A DNA stretch of 64,000 nt from Patescibacteria group bacterium (GCA_019752125.1 JAIEMM010000010.1:6558-70557); one strand, 5' to 3'. Shown: positions 32,521 through 34,938, counted from the first letter of the stretch. Notes: generated by a model not told the origin, from the sequence alone. Program-made: numbers and translations.

Positions 32521-33369
32521 TTACCGACGAACCGCCAGCTTGAGCCAGCGCACCGCGATGAGCTCGTGGAGCACGAACCCCAGGCCAGCGCCGATGAGAG
32601 TCCCAGCGACGAAGTTGCCGAGGCCGAAGCCCAACAACGCACCGAGTCCAGCCGCCACGAAGCAAATCGCGCGCCGCGAAGAGTGCACGCGGATGAACGT
32701 CGCGGCGATGAACTTCGACGCAGACATCATGGCGACGTCGAGAAAGCTGGAGATTGCGCCGATGATGGTCGGCGAAAGTTTCACCAGCCACCACAGACCT
32801 TTCAGCCCCAGGTAGATGACGTTGACGGGATTACCGTCGCGCGCCATCTCCCAGTACATTGTCTCCGCGCAACGAAGTCTGTCTTCGTATTCGGAGTCGG
32901 TCATCTCCGCGGGGCGCCTGAGAGACTCAAACGATGCCCAGGTTCCGAACGTCAAGCTGGCGGCTGGCCAGAAGCAGAAGACGCCGTAGAAAGCCCCCCA
33001 TACGATACCGTCCATGCTTATCCCCGCTGTCCTGTCGAGAAAGCCGACACTGACCAGCGCGACACCAAGCCCAAGGATGGATGTGGCGCATGCAGCTGAC
33101 ATGCCCACCCAGCACGCCATGTAGGTCCGCCAGTAGGCACGGTTGGGCTGCCAGGTGATGGTTGCACGCCAGGAGTCGGCGACGCCAGCGCAGAACTGTC
33201 GGAAGTCGATCGTCACATAGGCGACGATGCCTCCCGAGAGCATGCCGACGGCGGCACACCACCAGCGCAAGGTCGGTGACCAGTAGGTGCTGAGCTCGAG
33301 GCCACCGAGCGAACCGATGAGGGCGCCAAAGGCGCACACAACGGCAACAAGCCAAGATTCGCGCTTCAT
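32521..33369 (-). CDS. hypothetical polytopic membrane protein (GC-rich island)
   Basis: 282 aa, at least 6 TM helices, about 65% GC; convergent hairpin cctctggatgttgagtccagagg downstream. Confidence 0.5.
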   Translation of the reverse strand: MKRESWLVAVVCAFGALIGSLGGLELSTYWSPTLRWWCAAVGMLSGGIVAYVTIDFRQFCAGVADSWRATITWQPNRAYWRTYMACWVGMSAACATSILGLGVALVSVGFLDRTAGISMDGIVWGAFYGVFCFWPAASLTFGTWASFESLRRPAEMTDSEYEDRLRCAETMYWEMARDGNPVNVIYLGLKGLWWLVKLSPTIIGAISSFLDVAMMSASKFIAATFIRVHSSRRAICFVAAGLGALLGFGLGNFVAGTLIGAGLGFVLHELIAVRWLKLAVRR

Positions 33370-33835
33370 TTCACTTCCTCCATGTAGGGCTCAAACACAG
33401 TGTTAAAGAGCCGGTTTAACTGGAATGTTTATACTAGGCATTATAGACATTGTCAATCATACTTACCAAGGACTGTCCTCAGTAATTGTGCTTGGGGTGT
33501 AATTGTGGCAAAATATCCTCGCTCTAACTAGAGAGGATGATCTTTGCCGCACATGCCGCTCGACGCCTTACACCCCCGCAAATCTGGGGGCAAAGCGAGA
33601 GGACACTTGTACGTTCTTGCTGTACAAGAGAACCAGGTCGACGCGCCCAAGAAACCTCGGAGGGTCTGGGAACGACCGCCTCCGTATAAAATTCGGGACG
33701 TGGGCGCGATGAGCACACAGCCCATCAATTCCCCCACACCGGCCGGAATTCGCTCAGGAATTGATCGATTTCGGGCTCGTTATGGCGACTCGTTCAAGAC
33801 ATAGTAGCGGCACCACGCCGCTATTTTCTTTTATA

Positions 33836-34585
33836 TTAACGCAAGAGTTTCTCTAACTTTTTCTCACTCACTCCCCTCTTTAATGCATCGCGGAGTAACG
33901 CGGCACGCTTTTGACGCGTAGACCCTTCGAACTTAGATTGCTTAACGTAGTGTTTGCTTTTGTTGTTTATACGAACACCACTCGCCTTCAAGTATGAGCC
34001 GTAGTCCATCAACGCCGCGTAGAAATCCCTTGGCTCCATCTTCGACTTTTTCAAATCTCGCTCTATTAAAGGCAAAATCTCGTTATCTGCAATCTTCTTC
34101 TCTTGGGAGGCTGAACCTCCCAAATTTTCCGGCGAGGTCCGACCTCGCCTAAAATAATGATGAAGAAAAACTGTACGAATGTTAGTTTCGATAAAGACTT
34201 CGGGTCTATTGTATGAAAATACTGAGACTGCTCGGGCAGTATAAGGGCCAACGCCTGGCAGGCTCTCGAGAAATTCTGTGGTGAATTTTCCGGCAAGGTC
34301 CGACCTCGCCACAACCACCTTAGCGGCTTGGTGGAGAAACTTTGCGCGGCGGTTGTAGCCTAGTCCCTGCCATTCTTTAAGAACGTCTGAAAGAGATGCT
34401 TTTGCCAACGCAGAAAACGTTGGGAAACGTTTGAGAAACGCCTCGTACTTAGGTATCACCCGCGCAACTTGAGTCTGTTGCAGCATCAATTCAGACACTA
34501 AGATCTTGTATGGGTCGCGTGTTTTGCGCCACGGAAGATGCGTTCGCCCAGATTTTTTATAGAAGCTTTTTAGCTCTCGCAACAT
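33836..34585 (-). CDS. HhH-GPD DNA glycosylase (MutY/Nth-like, no Fe-S cysteine cluster)
   Basis: LPWRKTRDPYKILVSELMLQQTQV, GLGYNRRA, HhH LPGVGPYTARAVSVFSYN. The C-x6-C-x2-C-x5-C [4Fe-4S] ligands are absent. Confidence 0.7.
   Translation of the reverse strand: MLRELKSFYKKSGRTHLPWRKTRDPYKILVSELMLQQTQVARVIPKYEAFLKRFPTFSALAKASLSDVLKEWQGLGYNRRAKFLHQAAKVVVARSDLAGKFTTEFLESLPGVGPYTARAVSVFSYNRPEVFIETNIRTVFLHHYFRRGRTSPENLGGSASQEKKIADNEILPLIERDLKKSKMEPRDFYAALMDYGSYLKASGVRINNKSKHYVKQSKFEGSTRQKRAALLRDALKRGVSEKKLEKLLR
34123..34149. repeat. palindromic mini-repeat copy 1 (aattttccggcgAGGTCCGACCTcgcc) inside the glycosylase CDS
   Basis: 27-nt element, 26/27 identical to copy 2 at 34284-34310, with an internal 9-bp palindrome ggcgaggtc/gacctcgcc. 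Confidence 0.7.
34284..34310. repeat. palindromic mini-repeat copy 2 (aattttccggcaAGGTCCGACCTcgcc) inside the glycosylase CDS, different reading frame
   Basis: Same 27-mer 161 nt downstream; translated in a different frame from copy 1 (VARSDLAGKF versus FRRGRTSPENL). Confidence 0.7.
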
Positions 34586-34599
34586 GCAAAACTATCATA

Positions 34600-34625
34600 A
34601 CAAAAACCCCCTGTTGGGGAGGTTC
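34600..34625 (-). terminator. short intrinsic terminator closing the tRNA-like element 2 unit
   Basis: Minus strand CCUCCCCAACAGGGGGUUUUUG. Confidence 0.45.
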
Positions 34626-34660
34626 TTGTTTCTGCTGGCTCCAGAGGATTTCTCCTCAAC

Positions 34661-34679
34661 TACGACATAGGACTCGGTA
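34661..34679 (-). repeat. 19-nt segment perfectly complementary to the body of tRNA-like element 2 (tacgacataggactcggta / its reverse complement at 34769-34787)
   Basis: Perfect 19-bp inverted repeat read directly; the partner lies within the D/anticodon region of the tRNA-like element. Confidence 0.75.
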
Positions 34680-34732
34680 TGGATAAATGATATTCTGATT
34701 CTGAACTATGTCAAACCCTTTTCCGCTAGTAC

Positions 34733-34801
34733 AGCCAACAGAGGGGGGTCGAACCCTCGACACAGGATTACCGAGTCCTATGTCGTAACCATACTGTTGG
34801 C
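34733..34801 (-). ncRNA. tRNA-like element 2 (irregular tRNA, possible Pro-CGG anticodon in an 8-nt loop)
   Basis: Reverse complement GCCAACAGTATGGTTACGACATAGGACTCGGTAATCCTGTGTCGAGGGTTCGACCCCCCTCTGTTGGCT has a perfect 7-bp acceptor and T-arm GAGGG-TTCGACC(C)-CCCTC. Only 69 nt, with 8-nt anticodon and T loops. Confidence 0.5.
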
Positions 34802-34886
34802 TTATTCCATCGCATCGGTACGTGCGATGGTGAGACAACAATATCAAATACAGTACTGAAATAATTTTAAAATTTACATAACAAAA

Positions 34887-34925
34887 ACCTCCCTGGTCCG
34901 CCAAGCGGCGGAGAGGGAGGTTTTT
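34887..34925. terminator. bidirectional hairpin terminator after the RRM gene
   Basis: aaaaacctccct-ggtccgccaagcggcggag-agggaggttttt. Confidence 0.6.
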
Positions 34926-34938
34926 GAAAGGGACAGAA

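Follow-up and report, generated by a model that had tools for sequence, protein, structure and literature searches.

Known mimics of transfer RNA (tRNA) are parts of larger RNAs, such as transfer-messenger RNA (tmRNA), viral 3′ ends and messenger RNA (mRNA) operators, and antisense small RNAs regulate mRNAs or toxins. In the C4 (immI) system of phages P1 and P7, a structured antisense RNA and its target are encoded in the same orientation within one transcription unit, and the RNA is matured by RNase P. To our knowledge, almost no regulatory RNAs have been described in Patescibacteria. Here we analyze a locus, termed unit 2, in a 64,000-nt stretch of DNA (the window) from a Patescibacteria group bacterium (GCA_019752125.1). 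In this locus, a 69-nt tRNA look-alike is followed, on the same strand, by a segment complementary to part of it. A second copy in the window is termed unit 1. The flanking glycosylase, whose best genome matches are 77% identical, places the host of the window in Candidatus Adlerbacteria (Paceibacterota, Candidate Phyla Radiation, CPR).

We propose, with a probability of about 0.6, that unit 2 is a protein-free cassette of about 290 nt comprising two tandem small-RNA genes on the minus strand: one for a tRNA-Thr-like mimic and the other for a small RNA that is its dedicated antagonist. The anatomy of this arrangement, i.e., a Thr-like mimic and a small RNA with its own promoter that pairs with the loop, the stem and often the CCA end of the mimic, is well supported.

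The tRNA-like RNA

Intergenic regions between the RRM and glycosylase genes were gathered from genome loci and from contigs encoding glycosylase homologs; exact-sequence look-ups of the glycosylase and RRM proteins of the window gave no match, and homologs were used in their place. An ortholog is present at the same locus in ten further distinct genomes (L001, L002, L004, L012, L201, L202, L204, L206, L208 and L210). These ten and the window copy make up eleven orthologs which, along with unit 1 and a copy at a third locus found in the L004 genome (L216 8299-8366, hereafter the L216 copy), give a family of 13 members. A covariance model built from four orthologs (R1) scores the orthologs at 56-91 bits, the L216 copy at 51 bits and unit 1 at 44 bits, and genuine tRNAs at 23.5 bits or less. 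With the model built from all 13 members (R2), every member scores at least 61 bits (unit 1, 61 bits) and true tRNAs score 22 bits or less. A previous sequence-only reading of the window had described a hairpin, a 69-nt tRNA-like RNA with a perfect 7-bp acceptor stem, a 19-nt complement located 53 nt downstream of its 3′ end and a terminator, the whole forming a stand-alone unit between two terminators. All these parts were recovered on the minus strand at their positions, and the scores bear out the further claim that unit 1 shares this architecture and belongs to the same family.

The 69-nt RNA is a tRNA look-alike, not a tRNA. Nine ordinary tRNAs of the window are detected by ARAGORN (default settings) and by Rfam (gathering thresholds), and unit 2 is not among them. 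With the Rfam tRNA model (RF00005), whose threshold is 29 bits, unit 2 scores 19.6 and unit 1 scores 18.2, and thus the objection that unit 2 might be scored as an ordinary tRNA does not hold. When the ARAGORN thresholds are lowered to 80%, unit 2 is reported as "tRNA-?? (cggt)" with an 8-nt loop and the four-base anticodon CGGU, a setting that adds 29 calls in the window beyond the nine default ones. At ten of the eleven ortholog loci ARAGORN makes no default call. The remaining ortholog, that of L001 (L001 3795-3879), is miscalled as an 85-nt tRNA-Leu(CAG), which shows that automated annotation can mislabel members of the family as tRNAs. As regards the tRNA cloverleaf, the 7-bp acceptor stem and a 5-bp T stem with a UUCRA T loop are present, and the D stem, the 5-bp anticodon stem and the 7-nt anticodon loop are not.

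Covariation was analyzed on a model-based alignment of 12 sequences and 21 base pairs, with 500 shuffles and slid registers as controls. In the tRNA-like helices, 96.8% of the cells are paired, and both partners have changed in 18 of the 21 pairs, a level equaled by none of the 500 shuffles and by no slid-register control. All seven pairs of the acceptor stem co-vary (96.4% paired) and the T stem is paired in 100% of cases. Directly after the unpaired linker comes a continuous helix of 9 bp (10 bp in some members), and in eight of its nine pairs both bases have changed. The fold thus favored by covariation, with a canonical T arm and without D stem or variable region, replaces the D arm and the 1-nt spacer at positions 8/9 that had been assigned to the molecule. 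With respect to the loops, which had both been considered irregular, the 8-nt "anticodon" loop (consensus NUYRRUAM) is a feature of all 13 members, whereas only the window copy has a T loop of 8 nt, that of the remaining members having the normal 7 nt. At the pair 3-70, 11 of 12 members have C-G and the other one has U-A. When folded alone, the 5′ part of the unit is predicted to form the hairpin and a three-way junction (−45.6 kcal/mol, z −4.85). Inspection of the sequences revealed no open reading frame (ORF) conserved across orthologs: neither the 15-codon ORF of the window, which has the UAA of the loop as its stop, nor a CUG-initiated frame after GAGGAG is kept.

The amino acid identity suggested by the sequence also differs from that first proposed. 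The acceptor strand GCCAACA plus U73 is identical at six of seven positions to that of the tRNA-Thr(CGU) of the window (GCCAACG, also with U73), and the other eight tRNAs of the window share three or fewer acceptor positions, none of them having U73. Every one of the eleven orthologs has GGU followed by A in its loop. These matches indicate that the mimic is Thr-like and not Pro-like, contrary to the previous assignment as a possible tRNA-Pro(CGG). The loops of unit 1 and of the L216 copy differ from it (UGAU and UAGU, respectively). Only tRNA-Thr(CGU) and tRNA-Val(GAC) have an encoded CCA among the nine tRNA genes of the window (62983-63058 and eight others); as the other seven lack it, the cell must add CCA post-transcriptionally.

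The predicted downstream promoter and the antisense pairing

The promoter scanner reported a single sigma-70-like site in the region of unit 2, here termed P2, and likewise a single one in unit 1. A promoter of the same type, reading TTGAC(A/T/G), 15-18 unconserved bases and TAnnnT, is found in 13 of 13 members, and its −10 element always ends 6-11 nt before the complement. The presence of a conserved promoter immediately before the complement argues for a small RNA in its own right, with the antisense segment as its 5′ seed and the shared terminator as its end; its predicted length is about 80 nt in unit 2 and about 40 nt in unit 1. Transcription would then start both from P2 and from the upstream motif P1 described below. 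Since no terminator separates the two genes, transcripts from P1 should also hold the complement in cis. The idea of a self-antisense RNA consequently stands for read-through transcripts, although the conserved promoter between the parts argues against pairing in cis only.

The two arms of the inverted repeat are 100% complementary and lie 89 nt apart. By hand arithmetic, a perfect 19-nt inverted repeat within about 800 nt has a chance expectation of about 1e-6. When the small RNA is folded alone, its seed is single-stranded. We compared own and cross complementarities in 12 units (the eleven orthologs and unit 1). The gapless runs of each arm with its own small RNA were 8-23 nt long (mean 16), versus a mean of 9.2 for cross pairs (permutation p < 5e-5), and the duplex energies were −32 kcal/mol for own pairs and −20 kcal/mol for cross pairs. 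In a loop-anchored alignment of the antisense helix, 16 of 23 pairs show changes on both sides, and none of 500 shuffles is as good. As an example, the L204 loop AGUGGUGU pairs with ACACCACU, their window counterparts being CUCGGUAA and UACCGAG. The arms of the paralogs are unrelated in sequence, and each finds its complement in the small RNA of the same unit (13 nt in unit 1, 18 nt in the L216 copy). The complement is therefore not a unique occurrence in the window copy; it is conserved and co-varies in the relatives. The antisense helix has 19 G·U pairs against 6 A·C mismatches, and the tRNA-like helices have 20 against 2. This excess of G·U shows that pairing has been selected in the RNA of this strand and excludes a strand-symmetric explanation at the DNA level. 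In the minimum-energy fold of the 234-nt read-through RNA (−95 kcal/mol, z −6.7), the 19-bp long-range helix is formed and the tRNA-like fold is lost, in agreement with the earlier suggestion that the downstream complement can unfold the mimic.

A second complementarity is found further downstream in the small RNA. In 7 of 11 orthologs, the seed is followed by a GNRA-capped hairpin, UGGA and a near-copy of the acceptor 5′ strand; the segment after the hairpin reads UGGAGCCAGCAG in unit 2. The run of complementarity with the acceptor 3′ strand, U73 and a post-transcriptional CCA tail is 12 nt in the window, L002, L204 and L206, and 6-9 nt in L012, L201 and L210. Such a complement to the CCA-tailed end suggests, indirectly, a tRNA-like maturation of the mimic: it would probably receive a CCA tail and, once mature, be the target of the small RNA.

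Upstream of the mimic, the conserved motif TGnTAYYGT is the putative promoter P1 of the tRNA-like RNA. In the members that lack the 5′ hairpin (L012, unit 1 and the L216 copy), 6-8 nt separate its end from G1; in those that carry the hairpin, it lies directly upstream of it. We also considered sigma-54 and a conventional −35 element for P1, and neither gave a convincing match. The hairpin loop bears UACCGA, the core of the small-RNA seed, and is complementary to UCGGUA in the loop of the mimic (7 nt, 83.8% paired). The two loops read UACCAA and UUGGUA in L001 and L201, and G·U pairs keep the pairing in L204 and L206. The covariation between both loops is not significant, being no better than in shuffles and indistinguishable from plain conservation. 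A protective intramolecular loop-loop (kissing) contact in the precursor is possible in view of this complementarity.

Distribution of the cassette and its surroundings

The cassette is patchily distributed. It is absent from relatives as close as those that carry it, namely the P0004 contig (81% identity), L209 (76%) and L003 (74%), and also from L005, L007, L008, L010, L014-L017, L024 and L071. In the relatives without it, the RRM terminator is followed by TGTTATNAT, 6-9 nt and the glycosylase start codon. These empty sites, and the fact that unit 2 has its own terminator, identify it as an insert of about 290 nt and not as a leader of the glycosylase gene. The order terminator T-tract, TGTTATNAT, 6-9 nt and start codon recurs in the clade (window 34594-34602; loci L003-L024, at about 3970-4000), which implies that genes arranged in this way have extended −10 promoters, overlapping the T-tract of the terminator, and leaderless or near-leaderless mRNAs.

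Unit 1 (paralogous cassette, 2410..2569) is flanked by rpsU, whose own promoter is retained, and by a gene for a histidyl-tRNA synthetase-like protein with an HGTP_anticodon domain. At this site, just 22-48 nt are found in relatives at 88 and 73% identity, and hence unit 1 is also an insertion. The upstream gene (1210-2355, plus strand) encodes a 381-aa protein with a C-terminal HGTP_anticodon domain as its sole Pfam match; its homologs, annotated as histidyl-tRNA synthetase by JGI, are widely conserved in Paceibacterota. As relatives lack the insert, its adjacency to this gene is probably coincidental. The left flank of unit 1 (2356-2420, CTTTCAAAAAGGTTTAACAAGATTTTACGAAAATTTGAAGG) resembles 34853-34935, which includes the RRM terminator region and the AT-rich block, minus the terminator stem, a similarity that hints at the copying of whole cassettes, upstream flank included, between loci. 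The L216 copy has an S1-domain gene on one side and a DUF4440 gene on the other; since a convergent gene faces its terminator, this copy cannot be a leader. Cassettes are thus found at three or more unrelated intergenic sites, patchily among close relatives, and have diverged into distinct cognate pairs.

A search of about 530 kb of CPR loci with R2 gave no members beyond the 13, and a metagenome scan with the pattern TCGGTAAN{10,16}GGGTTCGA gave chance matches only, none of them above 22 bits with R1. Three GC-rich viral or proviral IMG/VR contigs contain D-stem-less tRNA-like sequences (L227 10320-10389, plus strand; L222 1365-1434, minus strand; L253 4780-4847, minus strand). They have in common a GUAUGGYUAC linker, a GGGG 5′ end, G3·U70, a canonical T arm and a preceding hairpin, score 34-43 bits with R2 and are called neither by ARAGORN nor by Rfam; no downstream antisense partner was seen in L227. 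On account of G3·U70 and the missing antisense partner, we did not include them in the family. They may be a separate class resembling the tRNA-like domain of tmRNA.

The neighbors of unit 2 are the RRM, sortase and HhH-GPD glycosylase genes, the ATG of the last being at 34585, about 15 nt beyond the terminator of the unit. No recombinase, transposase or reverse transcriptase genes were found near it. The gap of about 400 nt that follows the glycosylase gene (33440-33835, plus strand) is non-coding, folds better than shuffled sequences (z −4.0), has a plus-strand terminator at its end (33803-33825) and has no Rfam match; an unannotated structured RNA may lie here, where relatives have a convergent RNase J gene. 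Next to the gap, a 282-aa ORF (32521-33369, minus strand), membrane-like judging by its sequence alone and without a Pfam match, has a GC content of 0.60-0.65 (versus 0.47 across the window). As it stands where relatives have RNase J synteny, it may be acquired DNA.

Table 1. Features of the two cassettes of the window, in the order of transcription.
Feature	Position	Strand	Basis or remark
Unit 2
Terminator of the RRM gene	upstream edge of unit 2	−	begins the minus-strand order over 34600-34875
AT-rich block AAATTTTAAAATTATTTCAGTAC	34853..34875	−	upstream of P1; conserved in alignment, common to unit 1 and orthologs
P1, extended −10-like motif TGATATTGT (family consensus TGnTAYYGT)	34838..34846	−	conserved alignment columns
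5′ hairpin, 8-bp stem CCATCGCA/TGCGATGG	34830-34807	−	loop carries UACCGA; absent from L012, unit 1 and L216
tRNA-like RNA, 69 nt	34733..34801	−	model R1, 87.8 bits
Acceptor stem, perfect 7 bp, GCCAACA/TGTTGGC	34801-34795 with 34740-34734	−	covariation
Unpaired D-loop-like linker GUAUGGUUAC	34794-34785	−	covariation
Long stem	34784-34776 with 34767-34759	−	covariation
8-nt loop CUCGGUAA	34775-34768	−	family alignment
T arm	34758-34754 with 34745-34741	−	covariation
Discriminator U (U73)	34733	−	CCA not encoded
P2, sigma-70 promoter TTGACA-16-TATCAT	34687..34714	−	promoter scan; 11/12 consensus positions; ends 7 nt before seed
Antisense seed, 19 nt	34661..34679	−	perfect complement of 34787-34769 (linker end, long-stem 5′ strand and 7/8 loop bases)
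GNRA-capped hairpin GAGGA-GAAA-UCCUC	34644..34657	−	in the small RNA; in 7/11 orthologs
UGGA, then GCCAGCAG	34632..34643	−	12-nt complement of acceptor 3′ strand, U73 and post-transcriptional CCA tail
Shared intrinsic terminator	34600..34631	−	stem 34621-34607, longer in predicted fold; T-run 34606-34602; terminator and fold prediction
Extended −10 element of the glycosylase gene TGTTATGAT	34594..34602	−	right border of the RNA cassette; no part in its function
Unit 1
P1-like motif TGCTACTGT	2410-2418	+	
tRNA-like RNA	2425-2493	+	R1/R2 scores
P2, TTGACT-16-TATAAT	2495-2522	+	promoter scan; 11/12 consensus positions
Antisense GCTTATCAAGGC	2530-2541	+	complementary to 2448-2459; sequence
Terminator	2542-2571	+	sequence

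Explanations of the cassette and its comparison with known systems

According to the explanation that we favor, gene 1 would be transcribed from the P1 motif into a mimic with an authentic acceptor stem, U73 and T arm, in which an unpaired linker takes the place of the D arm and a continuous 9-10-bp helix with an 8-nt GGU loop that of the D and anticodon stems. The transcript would then be cleaved by RNase P and RNase Z and receive CCA. Gene 2 would be transcribed from P2, in the spacer, into the small RNA of about 80 nt, which at its unstructured 5′ end is complementary to the loop plus the 5′ side of the long helix. Pairing would begin at the exposed loop (and also at the CCA tail for small RNAs that have the second segment) and proceed by strand invasion into the helices, so that the mimic would be unfolded, sequestered and perhaps left open to double-strand-specific RNases. 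Read-through transcripts from P1, bearing the same complement in cis, would inactivate themselves. The small RNA would thus act as the dedicated antagonist of the mimic, with a logic akin to that of an RNA antitoxin. The protein partner of the mimic may be threonyl-tRNA synthetase (ThrRS), EF-Tu, the ribosome or the CCA-adding enzyme; the mimic could titrate ThrRS, be charged, occupy the ribosome or donate its amino acid.

Several observations weigh against this explanation. As there is no terminator between the two genes, either cis or trans pairing may be the more important. P1 is an extended −10-like motif only, without a convincing −35. The antisense run is weak in L001 (8 nt) and interrupted in L002, and complementarity to CCA is absent in 4 of 11 orthologs and in both paralogs; in L201, the base opposite the discriminator is mismatched. 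The alignments from which the pairs were counted were partly fitted or anchored by hand. Finally, the family was recovered from 13 sequences only, all of them from one Adlerbacteria subclade.

The pairing observed would fit equally well a small RNA that regulates mRNAs through its UACCGA-type seed, the tRNA-like RNA being its sponge or decoy, as is the case of enterobacterial tRNA-precursor sponges. The strong promoter and the unstructured 5′ seed of the small RNA, as well as the semi-conservation of the seed core (UAYYRA) and of the loop core across paralogs, speak for it. Beyond these 6 nt, however, changes in the seed are unconstrained and follow nothing but the arm of the tRNA-like partner in the same unit, which argues for the partner, and not a conserved mRNA, being the selected target. 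Moreover, the Thr-like acceptor, U73, the T loop and the GG of the linker exceed what a sponge needs, and we consider this explanation unlikely. The Thr-like G1-C72, C2-G71 and U73, the canonical T loop, the linker GG and the invariant GGU followed by A, would be expected of a functional, non-canonical D-stem-less tRNA that accepts Thr and is switched off by the small RNA. With its 8-nt loop, such a tRNA would be a quadruplet or +1-frameshift decoder, in line with the four bases CGGU read by ARAGORN, or a non-ribosomal amino acid donor, and the segment of the small RNA that matches the CCA-tailed 3′ end implies that the RNA has a mature end like that of a tRNA. However, the element is dispensable, as it is missing from many close relatives, the loops of unit 1 and L216 are different, and no frameshift-dependent gene was identified; in addition, we know of no D-stem-less elongator tRNA in bacteria. 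A functional tRNA appears unlikely to us.

It is quite improbable that P2 is not a working promoter and that the complement serves solely as a folding switch within a single self-regulating transcript. The lack of a terminator between the parts and the long-range helix of the read-through fold are compatible with such a switch, but 13 of 13 members keep −35 and −10 hexamers, 15-18 nt apart across unconserved sequence and positioned for a start at the seed, a pattern that is hard to explain except as a promoter. The terminator of unit 2 abuts the glycosylase start codon, which would suit a tRNA-mimic attenuator in the leader of this gene. That possibility is very improbable: insert-free relatives have the same layout of terminator, TGTTATNAT and start codon right after the RRM gene, which indicates that the glycosylase gene has its own extended −10 promoter and a leaderless mRNA, and neither rpsU, with its own promoter after unit 1, nor the convergent gene faced by the L216 copy is consistent with a leader. 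Lastly, the resemblance to tRNA-Thr and the patchy, insertion-like distribution might be those of a decaying tRNA-Thr pseudogene with a chance inverted repeat, or of a repeat acting at the DNA level, such as a recombination site or the end of a mobile element. Against both, compensatory changes preserve the three tRNA-like helices and the antisense helix across 13 members, and no recombinase or transposase gene is near. The asymmetry between G·U and A·C, which reflects selection on the RNA of one strand, rules out a DNA-level inverted repeat or miniature inverted-repeat transposable element (MITE), and we find these last explanations barely credible.

Taking the mimic-antagonist explanation a step further, the cassette may have a role resembling that of toxin-antitoxin systems. 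Tentatively, RNA-only modules composed of a tRNA mimic and an anti-tRNA might represent a new class of selfish or regulatory CPR cassettes, in which a processed, CCA-tailed and possibly Thr-charged mimic would interfere with translation or with ThrRS, the cognate small RNA would unzip it from the loop and the CCA end, and the cassettes would reach new intergenic sites and diversify into orthogonal pairs. Should the mimic-antagonist explanation be true, the cassette would provide a testable RNA-RNA system in Patescibacteria and show toehold-style unfolding of a tRNA fold occurring in nature. It would also prompt one to ask what part a D-stem-less, Thr-like mimic plays in cells whose translation apparatus is minimal.

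A free-standing tRNA mimic with a promoter-driven, co-evolving antisense partner, duplicated with distinct specificities, is undescribed in Rfam 15 and in the literature searched. Scans of the window and the related viral loci at gathering thresholds gave no Rfam 15 family, nor was there any meaningful sub-threshold match in the regions searched, and the full-text literature searched contained nothing relevant to a cassette of mimic and antisense RNA. The mimic resembles bacterial tRNA-Thr in its acceptor, U73, 5-bp T stem, UUCGA T loop, GG at the D-loop position and GGU-A in the loop. It differs from tRNA-Thr in having one continuous helix with an 8-nt loop in place of D stem and variable region, in not encoding CCA, which the real gene does, in falling below Rfam and ARAGORN thresholds, in being dispensable and in having its own antisense partner. 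With the tRNA-like domain of tmRNA it shares the topology, i.e., acceptor stem, unpaired GG-containing analogue of the D loop, long helix for the anticodon arm and T arm; unlike tmRNA, it has C3-G70 instead of G3·U70, has neither tag region nor pseudoknots, measures 69 nt and receives no tmRNA call from ARAGORN or Rfam. In C4 of phages P1 and P7 the structured RNA regulates an mRNA, whereas here the structured, tRNA-like RNA is the target, and there is no protein-coding one. The Rfam models for C4 antisense RNA and for Y RNA (YrlA) had no match at gathering thresholds in the window, nor at E-values of 10 or less in the 601-nt region of the unit; the neighboring RRM, sortase and glycosylase genes also do not include the rsr (Ro) gene expected next to a Y RNA.

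The small RNA is perhaps comparable to a T-box riboswitch or to a retroviral primer-binding site, as it is one RNA with two complements to a tRNA-shaped partner, at the anticodon-loop region and at the 3′ NCCA (UGGA opposite UCCA). Loop complements are found in all members, and those to the acceptor 3′ strand, U73 and CCA in 7 of 11. Unlike the case of the T-box, there are no T-box or Stem I motifs and no Rfam match for a T-box, the complements extend into helices in long duplexes aimed at the adjacent mimic, so that they would unfold it instead of docking, and there is neither a reverse transcriptase nearby nor a regulated downstream gene, the downstream genes being the glycosylase gene and rpsU, with their own promoters, and a convergent gene. 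When compared to modules with RNA antitoxins (type I, type III and type VIII, e.g., CreTA and SdsR/RyeA), the cassette has no toxin ORF or protein, and its two RNAs are encoded on the same strand without overlapping. It shares with these modules the tiny two-gene layout, the stronger promoter of the antisense gene and the patchy, insertion-like distribution, as well as adjacent genes with specific RNA pairing that co-evolves and is cognate within each paralog.

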